DNA from: Candidatus Melainabacteria bacterium 17Bon1m
GTDB taxonomy: Bacteria; Cyanobacteriota; Vampirovibrionia; Obscuribacterales; Obscuribacteraceae
Assembly (NCBI GenBank): GCA_032128875.1
Contig: JAVLKG010000007.1
Location: 32,001 to 96,000, forward strand
Direction of reading: 5' to 3'
Length of the DNA stretch: 64,000 nucleotides
The notes below the pieces were generated by a model. The model was given only the letters and a program-made list of their open reading frames with translations. It made no database searches and had not been told where the DNA came from. Of this stretch, positions 1 through 64,000 are shown in pieces. How positions within the stretch are numbered: position 1 is the first letter of the stretch; each line of letters starts with the position of its first letter. A program made the translations under genes and the position numbers.

Positions 1-1
1 G

Positions 2-919
2 GAAGATCCCAAGCCGGCTAACCCCGTGCAGAAGGTCTGCGAGGACGGTCGCATCATCATCCAGGTCGGCAATGGTCAGCACTTTGGCCATCGCATCATG
101 GACCTGGTGGAAGTGACGGTTCTCATCGTCGCGGACGAAAACGTCAAGTTCGACTTCAGTTCGCTGGAGAAGGGCGTGATTGGCTTCGAAGGCCAGGACT
201 TCGATCTGGCGAAGCCGTACCCTCTGGGTGCGCTCGCTCCGGGTCAGGCTCCGGTCAAGATTCAGAGTGCGCCTTACAAGAAGGGTCAGACGATCTATCG
301 GATCGATCTCATCGTTCAGAGTTCGGTGCCGAAGAAGGCCATTCCGTTCCAGCTCGACCTGCGCTATGCAGTCGACACCGCAGCCGATGGCAAGTCGCCA
401 AACTGGAAGCGGCTGACTACCCCTGACTTCGTTATCACCACGTCGAATACCGCGGACAACGGCGACGAGCTGCTCGAGGGCGACCTCGAAGCCAAGCCGT
501 CGACGATGCCGTGGATGATGTGGCCGATGCTGGTCGGCGGTATCTTCCTCACCCTCCTCTGGCCGGGGTTGGTGATTGTGCGTCGCATCAACCGCGAGAA
601 GCCGATTCGCAAGAGCCCGCCCAACGAGGTGGCCTGGCGCGTTTACCTGCGAGTTCAGAAGCAGGTGGCCGAAACCGGTTGGCAGGAGAAGCACTACAAG
701 CTCCTGGCCGCTGCCATTCGGCAGTACTTCGGCGTCGATCCTGCCACCATCAACGAAGTTGGTGAGCGGCTCAAGGATCACCCGCAGTTGGAGACGATCA
801 TGTCGGCTCTGGCCAAGTGCGAAGCGGTGCTCTTCCAGCAGCGTGCACTGTCGGAACACGAGATCAACGAGCTGTGCGAACAGTTCGAAGACCTCATTCC
901 GCGCCCGATTCTCCTCTGA
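2..919 (+). CDS. BatD-like single-pass membrane protein, 5' truncated by the window edge; paralog of 8241..9428
   Basis: Frame is open from base 2. One TM segment (WMMWPMLVGGIFLTLLWPGLVIV) is followed by a helical C-terminal domain (AW...HYK..IR..T..E) shared with 8241..9428. Confidence 0.65.
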   Translation, partial: EDPKPANPVQKVCEDGRIIIQVGNGQHFGHRIMDLVEVTVLIVADENVKFDFSSLEKGVIGFEGQDFDLAKPYPLGALAPGQAPVKIQSAPYKKGQTIYRIDLIVQSSVPKKAIPFQLDLRYAVDTAADGKSPNWKRLTTPDFVITTSNTADNGDELLEGDLEAKPSTMPWMMWPMLVGGIFLTLLWPGLVIVRRINREKPIRKSPPNEVAWRVYLRVQKQVAETGWQEKHYKLLAAAIRQYFGVDPATINEVGERLKDHPQLETIMSALAKCEAVLFQQRALSEHEINELCEQFEDLIPRPILL

Positions 920-1213
920 GAATCGTAATCGAGGCTACTCGGCACCGCACAGTCACAGCAATGTGGCTGTGCGGCATGCCGTGTGAGCCACGTCTTCAAA
1001 GTACTGCAAAACACTCGCTTAGAACCTCCCTGCTGGCCGCCACCACATGCGGTGACTGGTCAGTAAGGCAGTTCTCCTTCGGCACTAGCTGATTGTGCGG
1101 GAAGTTCGTTGCGTGCTGAGACGAATGCAAATGAATGAAGACTGCCCGAGCGCATGGAATGCGCTCCATTGCAGGATCTCCTGCGGATGCATGGGCAGCA
1201 AGGAGTCCTACCC

Positions 1214-2728
<1,515 letters not shown>

Positions 2729-2876
2729 TTCCTCAAACGCAAAAGAAGCAGTGCTGTTGGTCTTGCACCACCGGCACTGTTTCGCGTTTATGCGCTTGCC
2801 GAAACAAGCGTACATCTGAATCGGCATTACGCGCCGTTCGCAAAGGCGCGTGCCTAACTCTAACTGGAGAACACAA

Positions 2877-4523
2877 ATGCGCAAGATTCTCACGAGTCTG
2901 CTTGTGCTGTGCTTCACGCTTGCCGGTCCCCTGGGCATCGCTCAGGCTGAGACCACGAGCAAGCCGGCCAAGCAGGTGAATCCGATCATCATCATCATGG
3001 GCGCCGATTCCGGGACGCAGGTTCCGGACCCGAATGCCCCTGTCCAGGCGGTTCCTGATGAGAAGGCCAAGCCGGTCAACCCGCTCGATAACGGCGGGCC
3101 GATGCCGGCGGACCTCCAGGAATTCTTCCAGCATCTGTTCGGTCAGATGCAGGCGCAGGTGGCACCACCCACGCCCAAGCAGCTGGAAGACGTCTATAAG
3201 AGCGTCTGGTATCGCATCAACGCCACGTACTACGACCACGACGCGCTGAAGAATTTCGGTCAGTGGAAGAACAAGTACGACGGCAAGCTGACCACGCCGG
3301 CCGAGCTCGAGACTGCCATCAAAGAGATGGCCGGATCGCTGAACGACCGCTGGACCAGCTACACCACTTCCGAAGAGATCAAGCAGTCGATGAGCCAGCA
3401 CAACGCTGGTCTCGAGCCGCTCGGCATGATGTTCAAGCAGCATCAGGACGGCTCCTACGTCATCGATTTCATGGTCTACGGAACGCCCGCGCAGAAGTCG
3501 GATCTTCGCAAAGGCGACACCGTCAAGTCCATCAACGGCAAGGACCTGACCGGACTGACTGCCACCGAGGTCGAGAAATTGACTCTGGTGAAAGCCGGTG
3601 ATGAAGCGACCATCGTCGCTGTCATCGACGGCAAGGACGTCACCGTCACGCTCAAGTCGGCTCCCGCCGACGCGCCGGATTTCGCGGCCAAGCTCCTGCC
3701 GGGCAACATCGCCTACGTGCGACTGCCGAGCTTCGAGAGCGAAGAGATGGTGGCTGGGCTGGTCGGCAATCTGCAGGAGCTCTACAAGGCTTCCGGCGGC
3801 AAGCTCAACGGCCTCGTCCTCGACCTGCGCGGAAACCCTGGCGGCGTCTTCGATTACGCGCGTCAGGTTGCTTCGCTCTTCCTCTCGCAGGGCGTCATCG
3901 TGACCAGCACCACCCGTCAGGGACTGGAGCTTCACGAAGAGCGCTTCAGCGTCGTGAAGGCATGGCCGCATGACTTCGGTGATGCGCCGCCTGAGGCCAT
4001 CGCATTTCTCCACACCCTGGAGACTGTGCCGATGACCGTCCTCACGGACGGCAGCTCTGCCAGCTGCTCTGAAATCTTGACCGGTGCCCTCAAGGACAAC
4101 GGTCGCGCAGTCATCGTCGGTCAGACCACTTACGGCAAGGGCGTCGGATACCAGTCCGGTCGTCACCGTGCCGGTGGCTGGCTGTCCGTGACGTCTTTGA
4201 GCTATCTGACTCCGTCGGGCTACAACCTGGCCAACAAGGGTATCGACCCCGATATCCCGGTTGCTCAGCCGCGTGGCGCTGCTCTGGACGTTCAGCTTGA
4301 CGCTGCCGTGAAGGCGGTGAAGTCGCAGCAGATGACGCCTGCTAAGCCCCAGGGCCAGCAGAGCTCGCCGCTCGCCTTCATCGATCCGAATGGCGTTGTC
4401 GTCAAGGCGGCAATGATTGCTGTCTTCTTCCTGGCCATCGTGCTCTTTGGTGTGCACCTGCACATGCGGGCGCAGGCTGAGGAGAAGAAGAAGAATCCGC
4501 CGCAGAAGAAGGACGGCAAGTAA
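2877..4523 (+). CDS. S41 carboxy-terminal processing protease with signal peptide and C-terminal TM anchor
   Basis: Signal peptide ending AQA, PDZ, DLRGNPGG, SASCSE and YGKG. C-terminal hydrophobic helix plus a Lys-rich tail. GGAG precedes ATG 2877. Confidence 0.95.
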   Translation: MRKILTSLLVLCFTLAGPLGIAQAETTSKPAKQVNPIIIIMGADSGTQVPDPNAPVQAVPDEKAKPVNPLDNGGPMPADLQEFFQHLFGQMQAQVAPPTPKQLEDVYKSVWYRINATYYDHDALKNFGQWKNKYDGKLTTPAELETAIKEMAGSLNDRWTSYTTSEEIKQSMSQHNAGLEPLGMMFKQHQDGSYVIDFMVYGTPAQKSDLRKGDTVKSINGKDLTGLTATEVEKLTLVKAGDEATIVAVIDGKDVTVTLKSAPADAPDFAAKLLPGNIAYVRLPSFESEEMVAGLVGNLQELYKASGGKLNGLVLDLRGNPGGVFDYARQVASLFLSQGVIVTSTTRQGLELHEERFSVVKAWPHDFGDAPPEAIAFLHTLETVPMTVLTDGSSASCSEILTGALKDNGRAVIVGQTTYGKGVGYQSGRHRAGGWLSVTSLSYLTPSGYNLANKGIDPDIPVAQPRGAALDVQLDAAVKAVKSQQMTPAKPQGQQSSPLAFIDPNGVVVKAAMIAVFFLAIVLFGVHLHMRAQAEEKKKNPPQKKDGK

Positions 4524-4533
4524 AACTCAAAGA

Positions 4534-4570
4534 CAGGAGCGCTCTCTTTCGAGGAGCGCTCCTGCTCTTC
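4534..4570 (+). terminator. Hairpin after the second S41 protease (possible intrinsic terminator)
   Basis: CAGGAGCGCTC (4534-4544) pairs with GAGCGCTCCTG (4554-4564); U-tract is weak. Confidence 0.5.
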
Positions 4571-4639
4571 GAGTATCTCTGAGAACCGCTGCGTATGCGG
4601 TTCGAGCTCGGCCAACCGAACAAAACGGAGGGCATAGAA

Positions 4640-4836
4640 ATGGTCAACACGAAAGGAGATCCCATGAAGCTAACTAGGTAGAGGCGCCGGCGCGCGCTAA
4701 TGTTTTTTGCACAGGACATGCGGCATCTAGCAAATGCTTCGGTCTGTGAAACACGCTCGTCTGCGTGTTTCTAATTCTGTGTGCGAACAGTCACCCTTCA
4801 ACAACTGCGCCGGTGCCTCCTACCAAAGGAGGCATC
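4640..4836 (+). promoter_or_regulatory. Leader with short uORF (MVNTKGDPMKLTR) and mutually exclusive SD-sequestering / anti-sequester helices
   Basis: uORF at 4640-4681. Helix 4812-4821/4827-4836 covers AGGAGG; the alternative helix is 4677-4693/4807-4824. Confidence 0.55.
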
Positions 4837-5139
4837 ATGGGCAAATCCCACCGTCACAGCTACAAGAGCTACGATCGCGACGACCACGAAAACCGTGGCA
4901 CCATCTTCGTCAACCTCTCTGAGGTCTACATCACCGACTCCACCGTGCAGAAGCTCCTCGATCGCGATGGCGGTCAGATCGAGCAGATGCGCCGTGACTT
5001 CGAGGATGGGCGTGAGATGTTCCGCTGCGTTCTGCGTCCCCGCGTTGGCGGCGGCTACAACATCGAAGACGGCCGTCACCGCATCATCGCCGCGAAGCTC
5101 GCTGGCGTGTGCTTCATCGAAGCGCTCGTCATCGGCTAA
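4837..5139 (+). CDS. Stand-alone ParB/Sulfiredoxin-like N-terminal domain protein
   Basis: YNIEDGRHRIIAAK matches the ParB/Srx DGxHR..AA motif. 100 aa, no HTH, strong AGGAGG RBS. Confidence 0.75.
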   Translation: MGKSHRHSYKSYDRDDHENRGTIFVNLSEVYITDSTVQKLLDRDGGQIEQMRRDFEDGREMFRCVLRPRVGGGYNIEDGRHRIIAAKLAGVCFIEALVIG

Positions 5140-5149
5140 CCAGAAAGAG

Positions 5150-5198
5150 AAAGCCGCAGGGACAACTCAGCATCACCGCTGAATCCCTGCGGCTTTTT
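5150..5198 (+). terminator. Intrinsic terminator
   Basis: AAAGCCGCAGGGA (5150-5162) pairs with TCCCTGCGGCTTT (5184-5196), followed by T residues. Confidence 0.7.
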
Positions 5199-5293
5199 CA
5201 CCTTTTTGCTGCGGTTTTTGCCGAGCAAAAAACAGTCTTCATAAATCTCATCGCGTTTCCAAAAACAGAAACGCTACAAACAGGAGTTTCCCT

Positions 5294-5611
5294 ATGAATC
5301 GCGGAACACTGCTGACAGTCATCGGCACCATCCTCAGCGTTGGTGCGCTTGCCGCCTGGGCGTTCGTCGCTCCGGCTGCCGGTTCGGGCTGGATTCTCTT
5401 CGTCGCCTTCATCGGCGCGATGAACCTGCTCAACTCCATCAACAACAGCACGCTCGCCACCATCTCCGGTGTCGTGATCGCAGCTGCATCGGGCTTCATC
5501 TGGTTTACGCACCAGACGCTGCCGGACGTCGGTTGGGTCGGCTTTCTGGCCATCCTTACGGCGCTCGGTGCGCTCAATGCGCTGAACTCGGGCGTCAGTC
5601 GCAACACGTAA
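5294..5611 (+). CDS. Small 4-TM membrane protein with internal two-fold repeat
   Basis: AGGAG RBS; hydrophobic; both halves end GW....F...GAxNxLNS. Confidence 0.75.
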   Translation: MNRGTLLTVIGTILSVGALAAWAFVAPAAGSGWILFVAFIGAMNLLNSINNSTLATISGVVIAAASGFIWFTHQTLPDVGWVGFLAILTALGALNALNSGVSRNT

Positions 5612-5648
5612 CTAGCGTTACAAGTTGCGCTCACCCAGGGAGATAACA

Positions 5649-5954
5649 ATGGACCTTTTCCTCTACATCTTTCTGATCGCCTTTGCGGGCGGTGTTGGGT
5701 TCTTTCTCGGCAGCGGCAATCGCCGTGGACTTCAGGGTTCTCTTCTGCCTGGGCTGATTCCCGGCGTGATCATCAGCTTTCACTTCTGGACGGACGCAAT
5801 GTACCTTCCGGCAGCGCTGATGATCGTTTCGGCAGTAGTCGGCTCGATTGTCTCCAGCCTGACACCCGACTCGAACCGCCTCAAGCGGCTCAGTCGCGAG
5901 CAGTCCGGCTTGAACATCAAGGTCGGATCGTATCGACTGGGCAGGAAAGCCTGA
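5649..5954 (+). CDS. Small membrane protein (about 3 TM), hypothetical
   Basis: GGGAG RBS, ATG 5649, hydrophobic segments. Confidence 0.65.
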   Translation: MDLFLYIFLIAFAGGVGFFLGSGNRRGLQGSLLPGLIPGVIISFHFWTDAMYLPAALMIVSAVVGSIVSSLTPDSNRLKRLSREQSGLNIKVGSYRLGRKA

Positions 5955-6063
5955 GCGTCTGAAACCGGCGAGGTGGCTGGGATTGTTGCGCTTAAGCGTG
6001 CACACAATCTCAGTCACTTCGTTTTTGGAAATTTTATACTATCTTTTATAGTTTCTCAAATCG

Positions 6064-6105
6064 AAAAAGTGAACGGCTCAGGGCGTCGCGCCAAGAACCG
6101 TTCAC
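6064..6105 (-). terminator. Probable terminator of the minus-strand MoxR/Bat-rhomboid operon
   Basis: GTGAACGG (6069-6076) pairs with CCGTTCAC (6098-6105); the A-run at 6064-6068 reads as a U-tract on the minus strand. Confidence 0.5.
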
Positions 6106-6235
6106 CTTCGCAATCGATGGAAGGCCCGCACGCATCCACCCATTGGTGAAAGTCGCGCGCGAGCCTTCGCAGGTTCTCTCAGATAATGCGGCCATTTTGT
6201 CGGGTCAGGTAGCCGCAACCGTTGTCGGCTCCCCA

Positions 6236-7651
6236 TCACACGCTCGTGACGGAAAGCCGGTTTCTCAGGCGGTCATAGCCGACGAACAACCGCTTGCCCA
6301 GAACATCGAGCCTGAGCAGACGAGCCAACTTCAGCATCAGCACCAGGTAGCCGACGACCAGGAACCAGACGAACTTCACCAGTCCGCCCAGCACCGTCTG
6401 CACACGCGCGGGCGTATATTGCCGGTAGCCGGAAGCCACCGCCGCACCGCCCACACCGAGCCAGCCCCAGATGTAGCGGCCGCCCACGACAGCGAGGTCG
6501 CGCGCAGCCACGAACTTGGATGCGACCAATCGGAAGAAGCCAACCAGAAGGTCAGCAACAACTTCCGACAACAGCCGGTCTTCGCTCTTCGGCTGAGGCA
6601 CCGTCACCGACAACTTCTTCACCACCGGCAGTCGCCTTGCGGCAATAGCGATGACGACCGACGCCAGCATGACGAGCATGCACACGCCGTAGAAGTTGAG
6701 GCTCTGGATGAAACCGTTGTTGCGCTGCAAGGCCGCTACGAAAAGCTGCCCGGCAGTCAGCGACATTGCCGCCACGATGGTGGTGACAATCGGCGTCCAG
6801 AGACGTTTCCACCAGCTACTCACCGACGACTGGAAGAAGAACATCCAGATGGCGCAGACGACAGCCAGCGAACAGCTGAAGCGCACCGGATAGCTGCCGA
6901 TGCCGGAAGCCATGGTGACAAACGCCATTGCGCAGAACGCCAGAGCGTAGAACGCACCATCACGCCAACGCAGCCGCCCGACATCGCCGAGCAGCATCAG
7001 TGCCGCCACGGCAAGACCGAAGGCCATGCCGCCGATGTGAGCGGAGAACGCCACACCTGCAGCTTCCTCGGCACCACCGAGCTGCGCCCAGAGCGACATC
7101 CACTGCATGACCATGTACTCACCCAGGAAGAACACGCTCAGGGTGGTGATCAGGTTGAAGGTCGGCGTCATCCCGTCCACGCGAGCGCGCGGATAGTACA
7201 GGACATAGGCGCCGAGCACTCCACCGATGGCACCGGAAGCTCCCAGAATGTGCCCGGTTCCCGACGTGTCGGTAGCCAGGAAGGTGAGCGTCGCCGCAAT
7301 ACCCGAGAGCAGGTAGAAGGCGGCGAACCGGCCGTGACCCATCCTCGCTTCGAGCGCGGGCGCGAAGCAGAAGAAGAACCACATGTTGCCGAAGATGTGC
7401 GAGAAGCTGCCGTGCAAGAACATCGCCAGGAAAACGGCGATGATGCTCCTGCCGATCAGCCACGGATCGCCTGTGGCGATGCCGGTCGTGAGCACGTCAC
7501 GAACGGGCAGCCAGCTGGTGATGGTGGTGTTCATCACGCCGCTGGTGTCGAGAGTGATCTGCCCGATGTACATCAGCACATTGAGCGCGAAGATCGTCAC
7601 CGACACCCAGGCGAACTTGGTATAGCGCAGATTGTCCTTGAGAGGAATCAT
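6236..7651 (-). CDS. Rhomboid intramembrane serine protease with long C-terminal multi-TM extension
   Basis: MIPLKD start, MFLHGSFSHIFGNMWF, catalytic GASG and AHIGG. Confidence 0.92.
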   Translation of the reverse strand: MIPLKDNLRYTKFAWVSVTIFALNVLMYIGQITLDTSGVMNTTITSWLPVRDVLTTGIATGDPWLIGRSIIAVFLAMFLHGSFSHIFGNMWFFFCFAPALEARMGHGRFAAFYLLSGIAATLTFLATDTSGTGHILGASGAIGGVLGAYVLYYPRARVDGMTPTFNLITTLSVFFLGEYMVMQWMSLWAQLGGAEEAAGVAFSAHIGGMAFGLAVAALMLLGDVGRLRWRDGAFYALAFCAMAFVTMASGIGSYPVRFSCSLAVVCAIWMFFFQSSVSSWWKRLWTPIVTTIVAAMSLTAGQLFVAALQRNNGFIQSLNFYGVCMLVMLASVVIAIAARRLPVVKKLSVTVPQPKSEDRLLSEVVADLLVGFFRLVASKFVAARDLAVVGGRYIWGWLGVGGAAVASGYRQYTPARVQTVLGGLVKFVWFLVVGYLVLMLKLARLLRLDVLGKRLFVGYDRLRNRLSVTSV

Positions 7652-8142
7652 GGCCGCACCTCCTTGCCGTCGGAATCGGCAACGATGCCGAACTCAATTT
7701 CTGCAGCCGAGGGGTGACGATTTTGCTCCGCTTCCAGCAGATTGCGCTGCTGGCGACGGAAGTGATACAGCACGAAGAACGCCAGGAAGATGAGCAGTGC
7801 CGCCGCGCGGAAAGGCGTCCACAACTGCGGCAGGACGGACACGAAAGTGCCGATCCCGGGCAGCTTCTTCAGCCACTCCAACGTCTCCTTGAGGTATTTC
7901 TGCACGGTGGCAGTTTCCTCGTCGATGTCGGCAGTCCGCTCGGCCTTGGGCCGCTTCTTCGCCTGCTGAGCCAGATAGACGTCGGGCTGACTGTCCGACG
8001 CCACCAGATGCGGTGACAGCTCGGTCGCCGAGAGCGCCGGTTGTGCCATCGCGGGAGATGCGATGCCGACCAGCGCAACAGCCGACGCGACCGCCAGTGA
8101 GAGCAAGACCGCTCTCACGCGCAAGACGATTCTGTTGATCAT
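7648..8142 (-). CDS. Hypothetical exported single-pass membrane protein
   Basis: Signal peptide (ASPAMA) and a TM followed by HFRRQQR. Its stop overlaps the rhomboid start (ATGA). Confidence 0.7.
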   Translation of the reverse strand: MINRIVLRVRAVLLSLAVASAVALVGIASPAMAQPALSATELSPHLVASDSQPDVYLAQQAKKRPKAERTADIDEETATVQKYLKETLEWLKKLPGIGTFVSVLPQLWTPFRAAALLIFLAFFVLYHFRRQQRNLLEAEQNRHPSAAEIEFGIVADSDGKEVRP

Positions 8143-8240
8143 TGGAAGCTCCTAACTATGTTCTGAACGGCTACACGCCGCCCGTTTCTGCAACCGGCAC
8201 AATTGCCGATCGCCAGTTGGGACGGCAGGGCTGCCGTCCG

Positions 8241-9428
8241 TTACATCGAATAGGGCCGCTTGATCAGCTCGTCCACCTCCTTGAGGAGCTGGGCTTGCTC
8301 GGCGGCCGACAGAGGACGATCGGTGATCAGCACGCGGTCCAACTTGCGGAACACGCTCTTCACCAGGTTCGCCTGCGGATCATCGGGCAGAGCCTCGATT
8401 TCCGTAAGCGTCATGCCCTCCAGCCCCGGGTAGACCGGCGCCAGGAACGTACGCACGACACTGCTCATCCGCTTGTAGTGCGTCTTGCCGAAGCCGATTT
8501 CCTTGCCGGACTTGACGGCGGAGTGCATGGCCAGCCAGGCTGCCGCTTCACGCGAGATGTTCTTGCGCGCGCGGACCCGGTTGACGTAGCGCACCGTAGC
8601 CATGACAGGCCAGCTGGCGAACAGCAGGAAGCAGAGGATGCCGAGCAGCGGAACCGGCCATGCCGAACGCGGCTTGACCATCTCGGTGTTGCCCATCACC
8701 ATCGGACGCTTCATGTTCTCGTAGCCGCCGTCGATGTTGTTCAGAAGAACGAACTCGGGCGTCACGAAAACCTGATGGCGCGGCGTACCGTCCGGGTTGT
8801 TGTCAACCGAGTACGGCAACTGCATGGTGAAGCGCAGGTGCGGCTTGATGGTGAACTGACGCACCAGGATAGTGACATCATGGGTGGTGACACCGTCCTT
8901 CGTGGTCGTCGTGATGACCGGCTTGCCGGCCAGCTCGAACGACTGCTTGAACGATTCCTCCAGAGCGATCTTGCCCTGACGGAGCGGGTCGAGATTGACC
9001 GTTGAGCCGGACGCCACGATGAACTTGATGTTCAGCGGAATGGCGTCGCCGATCTGCCAGCCGAAGACGCGGGCGGAGATGACCACCTTGATCTTGCCGC
9101 CGCCGCAGTCCGCCTTCATTTCCGGCAACACCACCAGCGGTGGCACGACCGGAACTTCGGGAACGGCTTCCTGATTGGGCTCGGCTTGCGCCTGCCCGTC
9201 GGCAGCCGGCGTCTTGGGAGGCGCCTTGGCCGGATCGGCAGCACCAGCCTGCGCGGGCTTCTTCTCTTCCTGCACGACGCAGAAAGGCGGCGTCACGGTC
9301 GGTGTCGTGTTGACCACGCCGGTGTCCTCACCCGCCTGCGCGTACACCGCAGTCGTGATGGGCATTGCCAGAGTTGCGGTCAGCATCGCGGCCGCCGCGA
9401 AAGTGAGTCTACGATTCAGACGATTCAT
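8241..9428 (-). CDS. BatD-like exported protein with one TM and C-terminal helical domain
   Basis: GGAGA RBS, signal peptide ending AVYA, TM (WPVPLLGILCFLLFASW). Lies directly after DUF58, overlapping its 3' end. Confidence 0.7.
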   Translation of the reverse strand: MNRLNRRLTFAAAAMLTATLAMPITTAVYAQAGEDTGVVNTTPTVTPPFCVVQEEKKPAQAGAADPAKAPPKTPAADGQAQAEPNQEAVPEVPVVPPLVVLPEMKADCGGGKIKVVISARVFGWQIGDAIPLNIKFIVASGSTVNLDPLRQGKIALEESFKQSFELAGKPVITTTTKDGVTTHDVTILVRQFTIKPHLRFTMQLPYSVDNNPDGTPRHQVFVTPEFVLLNNIDGGYENMKRPMVMGNTEMVKPRSAWPVPLLGILCFLLFASWPVMATVRYVNRVRARKNISREAAAWLAMHSAVKSGKEIGFGKTHYKRMSSVVRTFLAPVYPGLEGMTLTEIEALPDDPQANLVKSVFRKLDRVLITDRPLSAAEQAQLLKEVDELIKRPYSM

Positions 9429-10356
9429 GTTCATTCTCCATTGGCCGGTGACCGGAGTAGATAGGCAGAATGGTCTCATTGAGACCGTCGACATCCTGGT
9501 CGGTCCAGAACTCCTGCATGGAGCATCCGAAGTCGACCAGAGTTTTGCGCAGCTCCTGACGCTGAGCGTCGAAGCTTTCACGCCATTGACGGCGGGTCTT
9601 GTCACTGAGGTGAATGCCGGACACACCACCCGTGCCGAGATCCTCGAGATCACGGAAGCCGGAGCCTTCGGGCAATTCGCGCTCACGGCGATCGCCGACG
9701 ACGAGGGCTATCACGTCGTGCATCTCCGCTGCAGCCTCGAGCGCATCCTTGTCGGCGGCGCTGTAGTTCTGCCAGTCGGAGATGATGAAGACGAGGCAGC
9801 GCCGGTCCGTGGGCAGCCGCTCGAGCGACTGAACCAGACCCGACTGCTCCTCGGCATCGAAGCCGTCTTCTTCGGAATCCTCGTCGAGGTATCCGAAAAG
9901 TCCTTGCTGAAGCAGACGTCCCGCCGGACGATGCGAGCGGAACTGATGAATTTTGTTGCCCTGCCAAATCGAGTAGCCGAGCAAGTCGTTGGTGCAGGAC
10001 GTGTTCTGCAACACGGAGCCCATCAGCCACGCGCACAACTCCTTCTTGGTGTGGCGAACGACACCGAAGTCGACCGACTTCGAGTTTTCCACCAGCACGT
10101 AGACGGTGAGGTCGCGGGGCTGTTCGAAGACCAGCGTGTACTTCGTACGCCAGCCGGTTTTCGCAGTGGGGCGGGGCGCCAGCCTGTCGCCGGGTTCCCA
10201 CTCCTTGATGCCTGCCAGGTCAAAGCCGGAATCGCCCAAAGTCTCGCTGTCACGCTCGCTGCCCGAGTAATCGGGAGCGTTCGTACGCCACGGGACTTCG
10301 ATGCCGACCGACATGACCCCGGACAAGATGTCCTGGATTAAGTCTTCGACAGTCAT
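9409..10356 (-). CDS. DUF58 / VWA-like protein of MoxR operons
   Basis: GFDLAGIKEWEPGD, VLVENSKSVDFG, FIISDW, RERELP; adjacent to MoxR. AGGTGG RBS. Confidence 0.88.
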   Translation of the reverse strand: MTVEDLIQDILSGVMSVGIEVPWRTNAPDYSGSERDSETLGDSGFDLAGIKEWEPGDRLAPRPTAKTGWRTKYTLVFEQPRDLTVYVLVENSKSVDFGVVRHTKKELCAWLMGSVLQNTSCTNDLLGYSIWQGNKIHQFRSHRPAGRLLQQGLFGYLDEDSEEDGFDAEEQSGLVQSLERLPTDRRCLVFIISDWQNYSAADKDALEAAAEMHDVIALVVGDRRERELPEGSGFRDLEDLGTGGVSGIHLSDKTRRQWRESFDAQRQELRKTLVDFGCSMQEFWTDQDVDGLNETILPIYSGHRPMENEHESSES

Positions 10357-10464
10357 GATTCTATCCACCTTTGTTTGAGTGAAATTGCCTGTGCCCGCAT
10401 GTCTTGAGCACCGGATTGACCGGGCTCGGTGAAACACGCGGGCAGCACGCTTCATAGACGACCA

Positions 10465-11523: not shown

Positions 11524-11642
11524 GGCGATATCCTTTGTTCACTTGTGTCATGAGGAAAGCCGACTCGCCCAGGTTGGCAAAGCTGGATGCTTCCAGCGAT
11601 GTCAGCCTTTGCGAGTGCGGCGGTTTCAGTTGGAAGTCACGT

Positions 11643-12839: not shown

Positions 12840-12847
12840 CGCCTCCT

Positions 12848-13546: not shown

Positions 13547-13562
13547 GTCGTAGTTCCTCCAG

Positions 13563-43329: not shown

Positions 43330-43456
43330 CACCGGCGCCTTGCATGTTCTCAAACTACAGCGAAAGCTAGGTGGAGGCGACCGGATCTGAAGTCGGAAAC
43401 GATGGAAGGTCCTGTCGCTTTTCACTTTCTTTGGAGTATCGAAAGGACTAAATGCC

Positions 43457-54921: not shown

Positions 54922-56469
54922 ATGAAAAACATGAATGACACAACCTCTAACGTGTCCGTTCTCGCGAACGGCACCAACTCCAACGTCGACAGCAGCGCTA
55001 GCCAGCCGCTGTCTTTCGAAGCCCTGCTCGCCGCCTATGACGTTCCGCGCCCGGTCGCGTACGGTCAGGTCGTGAAGGGCACCATCCTTCCTGTCGGTGA
55101 CAACGCGCACTTCTACGTGGCCATCGGCCAGAAGTCGGACGCGCTGCTGCCCAAGAAGGACGCTGGCGAACTCAAGGCCGGTGACGAAGCCGAGTTCCTC
55201 GTGGTCTCCGACGGCGAAGACGACGAGTTCACCATGCTCTCGTTCACTCGCCTCCAGCACCAGCGCGAAGTCGAAGGAGCCTGGTCCGCGCTCCTGCAGC
55301 TCGTTGCCTCTGGCGATGTCACGGAAGTGACCGTCATCGGCGTCGAGAAGCGCAAGGACGATGACCGCATCTCCGGCGTGAAGGCTTCCTTCCGTGGGCT
55401 GCTCAAGGGCTTCATTCCGCTGTCGCTCGTCCAGGGCTCGGTGGATAGTCTCATCGGGTCGTCCATCCCGGTCAAGGTGCTCAAGGCGGAAGACAAAGGC
55501 CGCTTCAGCAACATCCTCTTCAGCAACAAGGCTGCCAACGAAGCTCTCGTCGGCAACGCCATCGCCGACCTCTCGGAAGGCACGGTGGTGACGGGCACGG
55601 TCACGAAGATCATGCTCGAGAAGAAGGATGCGCGCAACGAAGGCGCTCCGCGTCGCGAAACCGGTGTGCTGGTTGAGTTCCAGCCCGGCGTCAGTGGTTT
55701 CGTGCACAAGAGCAACATCAGCGACTCGCGTGGCGTCAAGCCCAGCGATGTGCTGAAGCTCGGGCAGGTCGTGCAGGTGAAGATCATCAGCATCGACACC
55801 GAGTCGCAGCGCATCTCGCTGAGTTACAAGGATGTGGAAGCCAACCGCGAGGCGATTGCCGCGCAGCAGGCTGACGCCATCCGCAACCAGCTCGGCTCGC
55901 TGACCGCCGGCGACAAGCTGACCGGTCGCGTGAAGCGCGTGCTGCTCGAGCGCGAAACCAACCCGTCCGCCGAGAAGCGCGAGCTCGGTGCGATCGTGGT
56001 GCTGCCCAACGGCACCGAGGCGTTCTTGCACCGCAACGAGTGCTCCGACAGCCGCCTGGTCTCCATCTCTCACCTGATGAAGGTGGGCGACGAGATCCTC
56101 GTCGAGGTGAAGTTCGTCGACCTGGAAGCCGGTCGCGTTCAGCTCAGCTACAAGAAAGTGGCGGAGAACAAGGAGCGCGTGCAGTCCGTGTCGGACGAGC
56201 TGAAGAGCTCGTTCCGCTCCGGTCTCAAGGTCGGTGACCGCCGCAACGGCACCGTGGCTCGCGTCGTGCCCTTCGGTGTGTTCGTCCGCATCGGCGGCGG
56301 CATCGAAGCGCTGCTCCACGTCAGCGAAATCACCAGCGACCGCTCCCGCCAGGAAGCGGAACTCGCTGCGTTCAAGACGGGCACTCCGTTGGACGTGGTG
56401 ATCTCGAAGACCGAGGAGGACAAGGGTCACACGAAGGTGTGGGTCTCCCTCGCGCCGGAACAGGCCTAA
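54922..56469 (+). CDS. Ribosomal protein S1-like protein with five S1 domains (divergent)
   Basis: FEALL N-terminal helix, GQVVKGTI..IGQKSDA.LP, GFIPLS, GFVHKSNIS, AFLHRNECS, PFGVFV..ALLHVSEI; AAGGAG RBS. Confidence 0.9.
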   Translation: MKNMNDTTSNVSVLANGTNSNVDSSASQPLSFEALLAAYDVPRPVAYGQVVKGTILPVGDNAHFYVAIGQKSDALLPKKDAGELKAGDEAEFLVVSDGEDDEFTMLSFTRLQHQREVEGAWSALLQLVASGDVTEVTVIGVEKRKDDDRISGVKASFRGLLKGFIPLSLVQGSVDSLIGSSIPVKVLKAEDKGRFSNILFSNKAANEALVGNAIADLSEGTVVTGTVTKIMLEKKDARNEGAPRRETGVLVEFQPGVSGFVHKSNISDSRGVKPSDVLKLGQVVQVKIISIDTESQRISLSYKDVEANREAIAAQQADAIRNQLGSLTAGDKLTGRVKRVLLERETNPSAEKRELGAIVVLPNGTEAFLHRNECSDSRLVSISHLMKVGDEILVEVKFVDLEAGRVQLSYKKVAENKERVQSVSDELKSSFRSGLKVGDRRNGTVARVVPFGVFVRIGGGIEALLHVSEITSDRSRQEAELAAFKTGTPLDVVISKTEEDKGHTKVWVSLAPEQA

Positions 56470-57006: not shown

Positions 57007-57720
57007 ATGAAAACCATGACCGAAGTTGGAATCATGGGCGGTACGTTCAACCCAATGCACATTCGTGAATTGGCTGTTGCGCAGTTTGCCCTCGAACAGC
57101 ATGGTCTCGCCAAGGTGATTTTCGTTCCCAATGGCACGCCTCCGCACAAGAAAGTCGACGTCTTGGACCGCGAAAGCAGGTTTGAGATGGTCAAAGCGGG
57201 CGTCCGGGACAATCCCCTTTTCGAGGCTTCTCGTATCGAAATCGACCGCCCCGGAATCACCTGGACGATCGACACTCTCAAGCGGTTGAAAGAACAGCTC
57301 GGCGACAACGTCCGGCTCAATTTCATCTGCGGCGAAGACGTCATAGACAACCTGGTTCGCTATGACCGGCGCGCAGAGTTTCTCGGACTGGTGAGGCTTC
57401 TCATCTCTCCCCGCGCCAGTGAAGACGCTCAGAAGGCGCTGATCACCTGGCGTGCAACATTGCCAGAGGCGCAGATCGAGCTGATTGACTGCCCACCCAG
57501 CGGCATCAGCAGCACGCTCGTGCGCAAATGGATCCGCGCCGGCAAGTCAATCCGCTACGTGGTGCCTGCCGGAGTCGCTGAAATCCTCGAGCGCAAGGGA
57601 CACTACAAGAGCGAGATTCCTGCCGAAACCACAGCAGAAGCCGCGTTCGGAGGTCGTCAGTTTCACATCACTACTCTCAGGGTCAGCGGTCGCAGGCGAC
57701 CGTTGGCGCAAAAGAAGTAG
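57007..57720 (+). CDS. NadD-like nucleotidyltransferase with altered HxGH motif
   Basis: GIMGGTFNPMH, VP..PPHK, E..R.G..WTIDTL, ISSTLVR, V...I...Y; HIRE in place of HxGH. Confidence 0.85.
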   Translation: MKTMTEVGIMGGTFNPMHIRELAVAQFALEQHGLAKVIFVPNGTPPHKKVDVLDRESRFEMVKAGVRDNPLFEASRIEIDRPGITWTIDTLKRLKEQLGDNVRLNFICGEDVIDNLVRYDRRAEFLGLVRLLISPRASEDAQKALITWRATLPEAQIELIDCPPSGISSTLVRKWIRAGKSIRYVVPAGVAEILERKGHYKSEIPAETTAEAAFGGRQFHITTLRVSGRRRPLAQKK

Positions 57721-61666: not shown

Positions 61667-61737
61667 CGCACGTTATCTAATCAACAACCGATGCGAAACG
61701 GCTGCTGGTTAGGTTGGTGCCTGAGCCGATGAGCGGC

Positions 61738-63390
61738 TTAGTTGATCTTCCAGCGGATGCCGTAGCCGATGGTGACCTGGCCGTTGGCCGGGACGTCGAC
61801 GGTGAAGGTGCCGCTGTTCTCGCTGTCGGTGATCAGCTCGTGGGTCTTGTCGAGGAAGCTGTAGCCGTGCGGCAACTGCTCCTGGACGATGACCTGGACC
61901 GGCGTGTCCTTGAAGTTGTAGACCGTGATCTCGCGCTGCTCCTCGCGGAAGCGCGGCTTCGGCTCCTTCTTCGCCTGCTTACCGGCGCCTTCGGCGACTT
62001 CCTGACGCCGACGCGCATGCTCACCGGGAGTGCCGACGCGCGGGCCGCCCTGGACGGACATACCCATGGTCATGCGCGGACCACCTTCGAAACCGCCTTC
62101 AAAACCGCCTTCGCTGGCGACTTCGTGCTGCGGATAGACGTGGCCGCCCTCCGGAACCGGCTCGACCACGGGCTCCTTCTCCTCGGGGTCCTGATGGAAG
62201 GACACCAGGCGGCGCGCACCCTTCACGTCGGACGACGGAGTGGTGAGCTCGAGCTTGAACGCCTCGCCCTTGGCGACGGCGCCGATGTGGAGCTGCGGGT
62301 CGGTCTTCTGGTACTTGCCGGTGGAATCCGGCTGGAAGACAGCGACTTCGCCGGCGGGAAGAGCGATGCCGAGGTTGTTGTCCTTGTCGTTGCGCAGACG
62401 CAGACGCACGAAGACGGGCAGCTTGCGGTCGTCTTCCTCGTTGGCGGCGAGCTGGTAGTGGTAGGCAGCCGGCAGGTAGAACTCGGCCTTCACCGGCACG
62501 TCCTTGGCGACGACCAGGTAGGGGCGCTTCGTCTCGCCGTTCTTCAGCGTCAGCTTCTCGGGCAGAACGTAGATCTTCTGTTCGCCGACGGAACCGACTT
62601 CGGCGTTGTCCGCGTAGTCAGCGGCACCGCCGAAGGAAGCCGCGGCAGCCATCGGCTGCATGGCGGACTCGAGGCCTTGAGCGCGCATGCGGCCGCGGCC
62701 ACCACCACGCGAGGTGTTGTGCGCAGCCAGCAGCTTCAGCTGGGCGTCATCGAAGTCGGCGCCGGTCTGGTTGGTCAGCTTGACGCGGCAGCGCAGCTTG
62801 GTCACGGTACCGGTCTTGTCGTCGTAGAACACCGCGTAACGCGGCGCCCACGAGAGACCGCCGGTCTCGTACATGGAATTGAGCAGGTAGACGCCGGATT
62901 CGGCAGTCGTGGGCTCGAGCGAGAGCGACGGAGTGGCGCTCAGGCCATCGGGGATCGATTCGAGCTCGAACTTCTGCGTGAGCGGAAGCACCTGGATGCC
63001 GTTGGCGTCCTCGATGACGAGCTGGTTGCCGAGCACGAAGCGAAGCGTGCCGGTGGTGCGAATCTGACCCTGAGAGGTCTGCTCGAGAAGCGTGATCTTG
63101 CGGCCGACCGCCTTCTGCAGCAGAGCTGCCGAGGAGAGGTTCGCCGGCTTGAAGCTGTCGGGACCGAGCTTGAAAGCACCGGGGCCGGAGACGTCGGAGA
63201 CCTCGAAGGAGTCCTCGACGAAGTTCTGGGGCAGTCCCTCGAGCTGGATGGTCACCTTGCCCTTGGGCAGCTCGACCTCGCGCGACTCGTGGACGACGGC
63301 ATCACCGGATTGGTAGACGGTGAGTTCGACAGACGTGGGCTTCTCGGAACGGACGACCTGTCCGTCATTCTTCGTAAGCGAAGTGCTCAT
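61738..63390 (-). CDS. DUF4139 family protein (no signal peptide)
   Basis: LTVY....VHE.R, Y.T.GLSW...Y, LTNQTG.DF..A.L.L.A, LGIALPAGEV.VF; AAGGA RBS. Confidence 0.85.
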   Translation of the reverse strand: MSTSLTKNDGQVVRSEKPTSVELTVYQSGDAVVHESREVELPKGKVTIQLEGLPQNFVEDSFEVSDVSGPGAFKLGPDSFKPANLSSAALLQKAVGRKITLLEQTSQGQIRTTGTLRFVLGNQLVIEDANGIQVLPLTQKFELESIPDGLSATPSLSLEPTTAESGVYLLNSMYETGGLSWAPRYAVFYDDKTGTVTKLRCRVKLTNQTGADFDDAQLKLLAAHNTSRGGGRGRMRAQGLESAMQPMAAAASFGGAADYADNAEVGSVGEQKIYVLPEKLTLKNGETKRPYLVVAKDVPVKAEFYLPAAYHYQLAANEEDDRKLPVFVRLRLRNDKDNNLGIALPAGEVAVFQPDSTGKYQKTDPQLHIGAVAKGEAFKLELTTPSSDVKGARRLVSFHQDPEEKEPVVEPVPEGGHVYPQHEVASEGGFEGGFEGGPRMTMGMSVQGGPRVGTPGEHARRRQEVAEGAGKQAKKEPKPRFREEQREITVYNFKDTPVQVIVQEQLPHGYSFLDKTHELITDSENSGTFTVDVPANGQVTIGYGIRWKIN

Positions 63391-64000
63391 GTGTTTACTT
63401 TTCCTTGCTTGCAGAGTGGACGTCTCCACTCAGGCTGGACCTTGGGTGTGACTTGCAGAATCGCAAGCCGGTGTAGGGAAGCAAGAATGCCTGACCACCC
63501 GCCTCGTAACACTCTCTCCGACCACGTGTTGCAAACCGACATGTGACATCCCTAGCCACCCTTGGGTGGGTTGGATGTTTATCGAGTTCAACTGCGCTGG
63601 AAAAGAGTGTCGGGTGGTATCAGGCAAAAATAGATGGGAATACGAGGTACGCCCACCCTAACAATCGCGATGATTCAGTTGCCATGGAGAAACGTCCAAT
63701 GTTTTACAAACGGCAATCATAAGAAGCGCACGGGCACCCGCAAATCTAATGATCACGGCATCAGCACGTGGAGTTGATTCCAAGAGGTGCGACAAATTTA
63801 GGTTTTCGCAATTGCCAAGCGATCGCGCGAGATACGAAAGGATGATGCAAAGCAGCACATACTGGTATGAGACGCGGCAATACCGGTCTGGCTGCAAAGT
63901 GCTAGCGCAAACTTTTGCACCGGCCGCGCACTTTCACGTCAAGTTCACGAAGCCTGCTGTTATATAGTCCTGTCAGCCCCTTCGATTTGGCAGCCCTATA

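Follow-up and report, generated by a model that had tools for sequence, protein, structure and literature searches.

When base composition varies within a bacterial genome, the usual explanations are foreign DNA of recent arrival and weak gradients. In a stretch of 64,000 nucleotides from Candidatus Melainabacteria bacterium 17Bon1m, which is uncultured and related to cyanobacteria (contig JAVLKG010000007.1, positions 32,001 to 96,000; hereafter the window), blocks of markedly GC-rich genes are interleaved with genes of lower GC content, which raises the question of what this cohort is and what holds its composition. A preliminary description of the locus proposed that structured leaders occlude the Shine-Dalgarno sequence (SD) of the cohort, making its initiation depend on a divergent S1 protein. 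We found that a discrete GC-rich cohort is present, with gene-end features of its own and a second, divergent S1-like protein; ribosome-binding-site occlusion above chance is not a property of the class.

Two gene classes in one genome

ORFs and their starts were called with a simple codon-model caller of our own (5242 ORFs). Clustering over the whole genome, as proposed in the preliminary description, showed GC3 to be bimodal and not unimodal, with modes at 0.51 and 0.75; a two-component mixture (means 0.514 and 0.748, weights 0.90 and 0.10) gave a BIC of -12756 vs -10484 with one component. Genes with GC3 of at least 0.66 were placed in the GC-rich class (H); B denotes the backbone class. 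The H class comprises 477 ORFs in 131 blocks, about one gene in eleven, and 470 of these ORFs and 124 of the blocks lie on 10 of the 35 contigs, which together cover about 1.5 Mb around dnaA/oriC. Several large contigs have no GC-rich ORFs. The position of dnaA and of the cumulative GC-skew minimum is C7:~150k; no H gene occurs in the 50 kb around dnaA itself, and on contigs C3 and C5, each of which joins mosaic and pure backbone sequence, H blocks occupy solely the origin-proximal ends. As in genomic islands, the composition is unlike that of the host: GC3 is 0.72-0.87 in H genes vs 0.51 in the backbone, and spacer GC is 0.56 between H genes vs 0.46 between B genes. Block limits are intergenic, a GC3 jump of more than 0.2 between gene halves being found in 2 of 2986 long genes. 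The cohort is a genuine second class in base composition: some 480 ORFs, grouped in roughly 130 blocks whose limits follow genes, flank oriC on either side in one Obscuribacteraceae genus.

In an origin-to-terminus gradient, GC3 falls smoothly with distance from oriC and all genes are affected. Such a gradient is contradicted by the two discrete modes, by a backbone whose GC3 hardly differs between the inside of the zone (0.52) and the outside (0.50), and by the lack of H genes next to dnaA.

Pfam families were assigned to 61 of 148 H proteins, with no regulators among them, and to 52 of 89 neighbouring B proteins, 14 of which are kinases or regulators. A backbone paralog was identified for 101 of the 477 H genes (median identity 35%). 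Members of the H class are accessory enzymes, proteases and transporters, along with many proteins of unknown function; often they are second, divergent copies of backbone functions.

The window carries GC-rich blocks where the preliminary description had placed them (Table 1), with a GC content of 0.56-0.63 at 1-15k, 0.58 at 20-21k, 0.57-0.62 at 38-45k, 0.585-0.635 at 55-57k and 0.66 at 62-63k, and 0.45-0.52 outside the blocks. Its statement that no integrase was visible agrees with the Pfam search, which detected no integrase family among the 62 window ORFs. One IS transposase (59844-61409) was found in the window; ARAGORN detected no tRNA there, and an Rfam gathering scan of it returned RNase P RNA alone. 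The first block extends about 18.8 kb upstream of the window (24 called genes in total) and is made of two sub-blocks of different history (1-5.6k and 6.2-14.6k). Neither Pfam nor NCBIfam assigned its ParB/Srx-like gene to a family at the score thresholds applied. The H-type mgtE is 28% identical to the backbone mgtE copy on C2, and nadD is present in three genomic copies, the paralogs of the one in the window lying on C11 (backbone, 40%) and C15 (H, 37%).

Table 1. Features of the GC-rich class in the window
Feature	Position	Strand	Description
GC-rich block	1..14633		GC 0.56-0.63, GC3 0.72-0.87; unknown ORF, two S41/PDZ peptidases (Pfam), small ParB/Srx-like gene; rhomboid-MoxR(AAA_3)-DUF58-VWA-BatA operon on the minus strand (Pfam)
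ParB/Srx-like leader hairpin	4811..4837	+	TGCCTCC 4813-4819 pairs with GGAGGCA 4828-4834 (SD); ATG 4838
ParB/Srx-like gene	4838..5139	+	100 aa, H class; label from motif only, not a tool result
Second divergent mgtE (H type)	19579..20832	-	Single-gene GC-rich island; Pfam MgtE/CBS/MgtE_N; GC3 0.77
mgtE leader hairpin	20836..20862	-	GGAGG pairs with CCUCU; 2/200 shuffles as stable
GC-rich block	38141..45283	+	mgtC, PLD-like, small ORF, diacylglycerol-kinase-like, two acyltransferases, small ORF, GH2 (Pfam); GC3 0.72-0.78
Hairpin directly after stop of first acyltransferase	42042..42084	+	Overlaps SD-like AAGGAA of second acyltransferase; 1/200 shuffles as stable
S1-like protein	54922..56469	+	515 aa, five OB folds; SD AAGGAG before ATG 54922; GC3 0.80
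nadD (nicotinate-nucleotide adenylyltransferase)	57007..57720	+	H class; NCBIfam NF000840, 162.9 bits vs cut-off 150
DUF4139 protein	61738..63429	-	Single-gene GC-rich island; Pfam; GC3 0.85

Synteny and divergence among relatives

The same blocks were observed in the same order in four congeneric assemblies (G007, G008, G011 and G003), and H blocks were in place wherever the locus was assembled, which adds G012, G004 and G001. The block at 38141..45283 is syntenic in G007, G012, G004 and G001, with its GH2 gene missing in G004 and G012, and has orthologs in the same order in G018. Contigs from the metagenome run of an independent study bridge the junctions at 38.0k and 45.3k. An assembly or binning artefact mixing two organisms might be suspected from the metagenome-type assembly, its 4.5% estimated contamination and the large contigs devoid of GC-rich ORFs. 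The possibility is hardly credible, since the seven relatives show the same mosaic and order, the independent contigs cross H/B junctions, C3 and C5 join both kinds of sequence, and the codon-position composition of backbone genes does not differ between mosaic contigs and the rest. Contig chimerism at the block junctions is thereby refuted.

In the sister genera G017 and G018, where GC3 is uniformly 0.66-0.79, orthologs of H and B genes are present and syntenic, and their GC3 differs by just 0.04-0.10. This small gap indicates that the large split arose in place in the present genus, in which H genes have a GC3 of 0.77 vs 0.70 in their G018 orthologs. The H blocks are older than the genus, and part of their synteny extends to another genus.

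Divergence was analysed for 22 H and 28 B genes of this window against four relatives. At third positions, H genes have diverged about half as much as their neighbours (0.069 vs 0.160 for G011, 0.192 vs 0.391 for G008 and 0.261 vs 0.398 for G007); positions 1 and 2 are lowered alike against G011 and G008, and ts/tv is unchanged. Identity follows GC across block edges (rho 0.66, p 2.5e-6), the mgtE island included, where identity to G007 and G008 is 0.86-0.91 in the gene vs 0.70-0.80 in the flanks. Fourfold divergence is merely 0.04-0.05 in the ParB/Srx-like gene, and 0.08-0.25 in the DUF4139 gene vs 0.45-0.61 in adjoining backbone genes. Within the genus, the backbone is close to saturated at third positions.

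An in-place replacement of alleles is seen at 6.2-14.6k, where G000 and G008 differ by 0.03-0.14 and G007 differs from both by 0.23-0.37. The G007 distances exceed the backbone range (0.18-0.25) in seven of eight genes, MoxR (0.226) falling within it. The GC4 of a given gene hardly varies from species to species, including cases in which divergence at fourfold sites amounts to 0.36-0.51, and in near-saturated pairs of H alleles both keep a GC4 of 0.71-0.85.

Flanking backbone genes show no lowered divergence; recombination tracts should ignore gene limits, and this would not be expected of exchanged modules. Spacer divergence inside H blocks is not below that of the backbone (0.102 vs 0.074 for G011, 0.173 vs 0.166 for G007), which is likewise unexpected for modules of younger coalescence. 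Polarised fourfold changes in H along the G000 lineage gave S>W:W>S counts of 62:25, 17:7 and 12:2, a net loss of GC. The GC* that these counts imply is 0.50-0.68, whereas the genes now stand at 0.78-0.81, in agreement with decay and not with maintenance, although parsimony is known to overcount common-to-rare changes.

Leaders, gene ends and the S1-like protein

The preliminary description regarded an SD inside a stem as a property of the class, and comparison with shuffled controls did not bear this out. An SD was present in 338 of 477 H genes and 1945 of 4477 B genes. Its pairing in H was 0.653, and shuffling of the flanks gave 0.647 (n=338, p=0.61); in B the values were 0.598 and 0.610 (n=500). 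Occlusion in H is therefore no greater than in the shuffled controls. The mRNA regions of H genes do fold more stably than shuffles; their leaders, however, fold less stably than the coding sequence of the class (-16.0 kcal/mol, compared with -20.9 kcal/mol). Among the six leaders singled out earlier, each compared with 200 shuffles, those of the ParB-like gene (z -3.25), mgtE (z -2.73) and the second acyltransferase (z -2.69) were above chance, whereas those of mgtC (-1.39), the first acyltransferase (-1.33) and GH2 (-0.21) were not. SD sequestration is a matter of a few genes only.

The ParB-like leader places its SD in a stable, conserved local hairpin, as SD-sequestering switches and thermometers do. 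None of 200 shuffles folded as well, and SD pairing was 0.99 vs 0.69+-0.13 in controls; scanning the window at Rfam gathering thresholds matched it to no described RNA family. Its stem shows no change in G007 or G008 and hence gives no covariation evidence. In the mgtE leader, whose hairpin is conserved in the same two genomes, SD pairing was also 0.99, yet controls already reached 0.89+-0.10. The hairpin before the second acyltransferase keeps its inner stem in G007 and has lost the outer one.

The claim that spacers are densely base-paired holds for structure as such, but the structure lies mostly 3' of genes. At stop+1..+60 the mean folding z was -2.24 in H (48% below -2) vs -0.75 in B (21%), with n=260 each; the folding excess of the H class is strongest here and is found also inside coding sequence (z -0.50). 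These stable GC-rich hairpins directly after the stop (48% of H with z < -2) share that trait with Rho-independent terminators and are probably 3'-end or terminator-like elements. The k-mers AAAAAT/ATTTTT were found in 2.5% of H 3' flanks vs 9.0%, and A/T-run k-mers are depleted in H. At the other end of the genes, sigma70-like motifs were detected upstream of 2 of 477 H genes vs 95 of 4477 B genes, ECF-like motifs upstream of 2 vs 110, and no motif common to H genes was found upstream beyond the SD. Characteristic of H genes are a strong SD with an ATG start and, immediately downstream of the stop codon, a hairpin peculiar to each gene; promoters are recognisable for few of them.

Within H 3' flanks no k-mer was common to more than about 10%, and no shared uptake-like or attC-like motif was found; this weighs against exchanged modules, as does a confinement to the origin region for which they would not account. 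From the H 3' flanks and the ORFs themselves, an integron cassette array is unlikely, there being no shared attC-type core, mixed ORF orientations and many large enzymes conserved across genera.

The S1-like protein had been described as a divergent five-domain S1, and its domain structure agrees with this. Pfam detected S1 three times; there are three strong and two degenerate S1 repeats, the first two being the degenerate ones. The AF2 model (pLDDT 79.7; N-terminal 27 residues low-confidence) has five OB barrels, and the best PDB match is E. coli bS1 (9gut chain B; E 3e-32, 496 columns). Like bS1, and like the short S1 paralogs of cyanobacteria, it consists of S1-type OB folds in a row, with helices linking them. 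It differs from bS1 in its low identity (23%), its degenerate first repeats and its scores, which are below every NCBIfam S1 equivalog cut-off (best 178.6, 162.9 and 159.8 bits vs 624, 368 and 524), and a canonical S1 is encoded elsewhere. The paralog count suggested in the preliminary description confirmed that it is not the only S1: the canonical four-repeat protein lies on C3 (365.3 bits vs cut-off 368), with counterparts across the relatives, and the genome has another S1-like gene of the H class besides two further paralogs. Canonical S1, EF-Tu and the ribosomal-protein cluster belong to the backbone or an intermediate class. An identical 515-aa protein is present in a public protein collection, and orthologs of at least 63% identity occur in 8 of 12 other genomes of the genus; the best match outside the genus is 36%, and the family has only 16 clusters at identities of at least 47% among 5.8 billion proteins. 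The protein is a real, divergent five-OB-fold paralog confined to this lineage, and the "S1" annotation at 54922..56469 should not be taken for ribosomal S1.

The S1-like gene sits in the cohort, codes for five OB folds like bS1 and is accompanied by three leaders that pair the SD more stably than chance and by mRNA regions folding above shuffles, all of which would suit an S1-dependent initiation of occluded leaders. The gene was not found, however, in G004, G005, G009 and G012 (82-90% complete), and G004 and G012 carry H blocks, which makes translation of the cohort unlikely to depend on it. Given also the SD pairing equal to shuffled controls, the folding excess within coding sequence and after stops, the less stable leaders and the further paralogs, the model as proposed is very improbable. 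The protein is one of several divergent S1-repeat paralogs and not a dedicated initiation factor for the H class.

Origin and maintenance of the GC-rich class

It is unlikely that selection in situ accounts for the class, that is, that H is a separately expressed (rarely or conditionally transcribed), origin-proximal regulon whose transcripts are kept GC-rich and capped by 3' hairpins, for instance for mRNA stability, while the rest follows AT-ward mutation bias. The split did arise within the genus, as the narrow GC3 gap between syntenic orthologs in G017 and G018 suggests; H genes have distinct start and end signals, few promoter-like motifs and no regulators, and GC4 is stationary between diverged alleles. 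Yet divergence is lowered at all three codon positions, beyond synonymous sites, H spacers are GC-rich too, and no upstream motif apart from the SD is shared. EF-Tu and ribosomal proteins, the most expressed genes, have a GC3 of only 0.51-0.63.

A passive relic, in which H genes retain what they inherited from a GC-rich ancestor or took over from a foreign donor long ago and are only slowly ameliorating, seems improbable as well. The net S>W change, whose GC* comes close to that of the backbone along the shortest branches, and the uniformly high GC3 of G017 and G018 agree with it, as does mgtE: the nearest non-family homologs of the H type (55-61% identity) are found in Eisenbacteria, Myxococcota, Acidobacteriota and other GC-rich (soil) phyla, and the same mgtE has a host-like GC3 of 0.49-0.64 in other Obscuribacterales. 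In a quick tree of mgtE, the sole gene treed, the Obscuribacterales copies cluster (aLRT 91); its pairing of G000 with G017 is disfavoured, not rejected, by backbone genes (AU p 0.065). Under two-state relaxation at half the rate of the nearly saturated backbone, however, most of an inherited excess should be gone, which does not fit H genes standing above their G018 orthologs or near-saturated alleles that stay GC-rich. GC3 is moreover bimodal with a gap, not a tail, the blocks are fixed in every genus member with a readable locus, and the window lacks integrase families and tRNAs.

The explanation that we prefer, if tentatively and at somewhat less than even confidence, is that the cohort consists of exchangeable accessory modules. 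The halved divergence, the in-place allele replacement and a GC4 of about 0.8 in near-saturated alleles point to gene flow combined with a GC-favouring force or with resupply from GC-rich relatives. The blocks behave as modules that species continue to exchange or to replace where they stand. A process that favours GC and is bound up with this exchange would hold H at a GC-rich stationary composition, while the presumably clonal backbone sits at a GC3 of about 0.5; the process would be either biased gene conversion or a supply renewed time and again by relatives richer in GC. A wider proposal, which is possible but rather doubtful, is a two-compartment chromosome. About half of the genes within the 1.5 Mb surrounding oriC would form islands through which genes still flow between species of the genus, and perhaps to and from GC-richer sister genera, and recombination-linked GC bias or transcript selection would hold a second stationary composition, isochore-like at gene-block resolution and arisen in place in one genus.

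Horizontally acquired genomic islands that ameliorate with time are a model reportedly due to Lawrence and Ochman. The H class resembles them in its unusual composition, in limits that fall sharply between genes, in the length of the spacers at its junctions, in its paralogy to resident genes and in the cross-phylum affinity of mgtE. It differs in having no integrase or tRNA in the window, in forming 131 small blocks instead of few islands, in its synteny across the genus and partly across genera, and in a composition that has not relaxed although the backbone has diverged to saturation. For bacterial genes that recombine, GC-biased gene conversion is said to have been described by Lassalle et al. 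in 2015 (see also PMC11879095), and its known effects in bacteria amount to a few percent. Here, too, higher GC3 accompanies signs of recombination and lower between-species divergence, but the amplitude (0.77 vs 0.51) and the bimodality are far larger, and limits follow genes. In Rhizobium leguminosarum, core and accessory components of one genome are reported to differ in composition, giving two GC3 classes with the odd one rich in accessory functions (PMC1557990). Compared with that account, the odd class here is GC-richer, chromosomal around oriC and not on plasmids, interleaved gene by gene and fixed across the genus. Two GC3 modes in one genome are also reported for grass genes, alongside vertebrate isochores (PMC4316631, PMC2895627), in eukaryotic contexts of meiotic recombination. 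No bacterial case of this GC3 form was found in the literature searched.

In the present genus two sharply separated compositions coexist, interleaved by gene; they are fixed in the genus, and their mosaic is limited to the surroundings of the origin. Divergence of the GC-rich class proceeds at half the pace, with alleles replaced in place. If recombination-linked bias or selection maintains the classes, they would provide a natural system for measuring GC-biased fixation in bacteria and might help to explain why some genes stay exchangeable after species have diverged. Composition-based binning and island finders will misjudge these genomes.

GC-rich gene class around the replication origin

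The GC-rich blocks outlined in the preliminary description were recovered when GC was followed along the window, and the two-class composition that it had anticipated was observed genome-wide. The assembly of Candidatus Melainabacteria bacterium 17Bon1m (G000; Obscuribacteraceae, a non-photosynthetic lineage related to cyanobacteria) comprises 7.55 Mb in 35 contigs (~49.5% GC; estimated completeness 93%, contamination 4.5%), and the window corresponds to C7:32001-96000. ORFs were called with our own simple caller, using longest-ORF starts and a codon model with two classes, for which window genes with Pfam support served as training set. GC at third codon positions (GC3) was bimodal over 5242 ORFs, and a two-component mixture (means 0.514 and 0.748, weights 0.90 and 0.10) fitted far better than a single component. 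ORFs with GC3 >= 0.66 (477) were assigned to a GC-rich class (H) and those below 0.60 (4477) to the backbone (B), with the remaining 288 treated as intermediate. Genome-wide, the H ORFs fall into 131 runs, each 1-24 genes long. Ten contigs (C3, C5, C7, C8, C12, C13, C15, C18, C19, and C23) hold 470 of them in 124 runs, and the census detected none on C2, C4, C6, C10, or C11. Class limits are intergenic: a half-gene GC3 jump above 0.2 was found in just 2 of 2986 genes of at least 300 codons. Spacer GC was 0.56 between H genes and 0.46 between B genes; spacers separating the two classes were 265 nt long vs ~125 nt for the others.

An assembly artefact is ruled out as the source of this mosaic. 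Among relatives of the same genus, contig C20 of G007 shows collinearity over almost the entire window (65-93% identity, HSPs of at least 300 bp) and carries GC-rich blocks at matching places, while G011, G003, and G008 agree with the mosaic wherever assembled. One contig of G012 spans backbone, H block, and backbone; in G004 and G001 the block lies on neighboring contigs. The junctions at 38.0k and 45.3k are bridged by contigs from another study's DNA run, and a 16.4-kb contig from RNA libraries covers window positions 37614-54057. Codon-position composition of backbone genes was the same on mosaic and pure contigs. In the assembly of G011, the closest relative, nothing matches window positions 1-20000, and its contig C4 stops at the equivalent of ~45.4k. 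Immediately before the mgtC block, contigs of several runs end, leave loose ends, skip 76 nt, or join to 49388 or 54177, a pattern suggesting that a short element, repeated or variable, lies there.

The dnaA gene lies at the turn of the cumulative GC skew of C7, and its region is the likely oriC, 54 kb past the window end; the window is 54-118 kb from it. Skew is positive throughout C3 and C5, where H runs are confined to the first 125 and 279 kb, respectively, the origin-proximal ends, and a switch resembling a terminus was found on C4. The H zone totals ~1.5 Mb, H genes making up 51% of its H and B genes. It presumably forms one contiguous stretch. Around dnaA (C7, ~110-160 kb) no H gene is present. 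At the level of listings and abstracts, the literature yielded no account of a bimodal, origin-centered gene class in bacteria or Obscuribacter.

Coordinates of features in the window and elsewhere in G000
Feature	Position	Strand	Remarks
ParB/Srx-like gene	window 4838-5139	+	H class
Candidate repeated or variable element	window 37533-37650		
GH2	window 43457-45283	+	
Two tandem Ser/Thr kinase genes	window 46239-50935	+	C-terminal leucine-rich repeats; backbone class
RNase P RNA, bacterial class A	window 53766-54146	-	Rfam 256 bits
S1-like gene	window 54922-56469		515 aa
S1-like to nadD spacer	window 56470-57006		537 nt
IS transposase	window 59844-61409	+	DDE_Tnp_1_4, E 4e-110; backbone composition, adjoins H gene
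dnaA	C7:149467-150981		beyond window
dnaA and gene in usual dnaN place	C7:149467-152753		contig's GC-skew minimum
Three tandem Ser/Thr kinase genes	G000:C8 (L043:1023-8660)		C-terminal leucine-rich repeats; backbone class
Aconitase, H class	G000:C8:211202-213871		890 aa
Aconitase, backbone type	G000:C4:578736-581033		

Gene starts, gene ends, and the S1-like protein

A properly spaced Shine-Dalgarno (SD) word was detected at the candidate start of 338 of the 477 H ORFs and 1945 of the 4477 B ORFs (background 4-5%), and ATG accounted for 299/338 and 1334/1945 of these SD-selected starts, respectively. Folding of the 60 nt 3' of the stop codon was stronger in H (mean z -2.24, 48% below -2) than in B (-0.75, 21%; 260 genes each, dinucleotide shuffles). 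The H 3' flanks have no common sequence motif and few A/T runs, and a search of their hairpins for uptake-sequence or attC-like motifs found none. Downstream of the S1-like stop the 60-nt fold energy is -32.3 kcal/mol. Sigma70-like and ECF-like patterns were found upstream of 2/477 H genes each vs 95 and 110 of 4477 B genes, although the GC-rich H spacers alone would depress counts of such AT-rich patterns by composition. A common promoter or regulon motif was rejected for H: both patterns are depleted, and de novo k-mers returned only the SD and pieces of GAGCGCTC-type hairpins. Riboswitches ahead of mgtE and mgtC were likewise rejected, the only Rfam match in the window being RNase P RNA. 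In two RNA libraries, contigs of this RNA reached a depth of 1224-2274 vs ~44 in the flanks. Contigs of two public RNA runs (X2 and X3) cover the whole window with a single depth value each, which does not separate H from B expression.

It had been proposed that SD-occluding structured leaders and a divergent S1 give the cohort a dedicated translation programme. SD occlusion is not a class property: in [-50,+20] windows, SD pairing probability was 0.653 in H vs 0.647 in shuffled flanks (n=338, p=0.61), and 0.598 vs 0.610 in B (500 of 1945 sampled). The S1-dependent programme failed on this same comparison. Relative to shuffles, mean z of leader folding was -0.86 in H and -0.13 in B (random coding windows, -0.50 and -0.21), and the leaders of H genes fold less stably than their coding sequence does (-16.0 vs -20.9 kcal/mol). 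Among the six leaders named as examples, those of the ParB-like gene, mgtE, and the second acyltransferase were significant in the shuffle test and the other three were not; the hairpin assigned to the second acyltransferase is really one that follows the upstream stop. The ParB-like leader (z -3.25) is the sole convincing SD-sequestering element, and its stem is unchanged in two relatives and hence offers no covariation evidence.

The protein itself was correctly recognized as a divergent five-domain S1. Three of its S1 repeats are clear and two are degenerate, and the AF2 model (pLDDT 79.7) predicts five OB barrels joined by helices, with E. coli bS1 as the best structural match (E 3e-32, 23% identity); it scores below every S1 equivalog cut-off. 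The gene encodes the 515-aa form and not the longer open frame: relatives have stops in the upstream part, and public collections contain the 515-aa form. C3 encodes a 409-aa four-repeat S1 protein (score 365, cut-off 368) with counterparts in relatives; further S1-like genes are two on C19 and one of H class on C8 (GC3 0.91). Relatives of the S1-like protein at >= 47% identity comprise only 16 clusters among 5.8 billion proteins, beyond which identity falls to 24-30% with long-form S1 proteins. Orthologs were detected in 8 of 12 other genomes of the genus, and G018, from another genus, has a homolog (33-36% identity) at the syntenic place. EF-Tu and the ribosomal-protein cluster belong to the backbone class, and nothing beyond composition was found that ties the S1-like paralog to the cohort. 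Against G011, the spacer that separates the S1-like gene from nadD shows faster divergence than the flanking H genes (gap-rich alignment).

Gene content and age of the blocks

On C8 and C13, 61 of 148 H proteins matched a Pfam family at E <= 1e-6 and 87 did not. Among the families are two ClpP-like, FtsH-like, M50, S41, M16, M24, PmbA/TldD, aconitase, malate/lactate dehydrogenase, GlpD-like, NAD kinase, pantothenate kinase, GH14, GH57, GH1, debranching-enzyme-like, serpin, Bax inhibitor, NIF phosphatase, deacetylase, patatin, two T4-RNA-ligase-like proteins, TruD, and several transporters. Pfam identified no transcription factors or two-component proteins among these 148; of the backbone neighbors, 52/89 had a family, 14 of them histidine kinases, response regulators, Ser/Thr kinases, or HTH regulators. 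Full-length backbone paralogs were found for 101 of the 477 H proteins (median identity 35%), including mgtE, nadD, and aconitase. The two aconitases share 67% identity, and in most genera of the family a single copy was seen. Among family-wide best matches of the H aconitase and of ProRS, identities followed a flat profile that pointed to no clear donor.

The blocks are older than the genus: G018 keeps the order of the genes (S1-like, trmD, acyltransferases, DAGK, PLD, HU, BamB-like, M23, gatB, Mla); it also has the complete rhomboid-MoxR-BatA operon and a GH2 ortholog. Orthologs of H and B genes have GC3 of 0.64-0.75 vs 0.55-0.75 in G018 and 0.79 vs 0.69 in G017, a further genus, and all regions sampled in both are uniform at 54-60% GC. 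In G024, of a low-GC genus, the backbone genes are adjacent and most H genes are missing. From these comparisons, H and B genes are old neighbors, and the large split (0.77 vs ~0.52) is peculiar to the genus. G004 and G012 lack GH2 and have ~200 bp between acyltransferase and trmD; G007 and G001 carry it, and G018 alone among five other genera has an ortholog (49%). Judging from these assemblies, GH2 is a presence/absence polymorphism inside the genus. Alignments to G007, G011, and G003 leave out ~59.7-61.6k around the IS transposase, an insertion that seems specific to G000.

Homologs of the H-type mgtE (55-61% identity) occur in Eisenbacteria, Myxococcota, Acidobacteriota, Binatia, Gemmatimonadota, and Planctomycetota (GC3 0.85-0.98). 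In a quick tree the Obscuribacterales copies group together, with G000 and G017 as sisters. This pairing is disfavored, not rejected, by five concatenated backbone genes (AU p 0.065), whose tree is star-like; a single gene such as mgtE does not suffice to place the origin of the class. A general affinity of H genes to genus g6 (G017) holds for mgtE, PLD, and mgtC and fails for DAGK, GH2, and MoxR, which have orthologs in G018.

Divergence within the genus and maintenance of the class

The H genes are a discrete, origin-proximal, genus-wide class with a distinct architecture of gene starts and gene ends, and lower divergence is confined to its blocks. Among window genes, most of the H class had a fourfold divergence from G007 of 0.19-0.38 and most of the B class one of 0.46-0.64; against G011 the values were 0.05-0.13 for H and 0.13-0.27 for B, with one gene at 0.45. 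By site class, third-position differences in H were half those in B. Codon positions 1 and 2 of H genes were lowered by an equal factor against G011 and G008, whereas spacers were not lowered, and the ts/tv ratio was the same in both classes. Identity tracks GC over block edges at 500-bp resolution, including the one-gene mgtE island. Triplet distances are star-like in the backbone (0.18-0.25) and 0.06-0.14 in block 1-5.6k and mgtE. In block 6.2-14.6k, G000 and G008 are 0.03-0.14 apart and G007 is 0.23-0.37 from either, an in-place allele replacement restricted to an H block and at least one such event within the genus.

Several explanations of the high GC can be weighed. High expression was rejected as the source, EF-Tu and the ribosomal-protein cluster having GC3 of only 0.51-0.63. 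Strand bias explains nothing, with 48% of H and 58% of zone backbone genes on the leading strand. Passive retention is less likely, as decay half as fast as in the backbone would, on a simple relaxation argument, have removed most of the GC excess. GC at fourfold sites is nearly equal per gene across species, the near-saturated alleles of block 6.2-14.6k included. In H, polarized fourfold changes run more often S>W than W>S (GC* 0.50-0.68), which could reflect slow decay, young unpurged mutations, or parsimony bias; parsimony is biased where composition is skewed. We infer that ongoing exchange, together with a GC-favoring process or resupply from GC-richer relatives, would keep H genes GC-rich. 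Maintenance by exchange does not account for the gene-precise limits, the undiminished spacer divergence, the net S>W change, and the confinement to the origin region.

The ParB/Srx-like gene shows fourfold divergence of 0.04-0.05 vs 0.19-0.33 in its H neighbors, and the leader shows 94-95% identity to those of G007 and G008.
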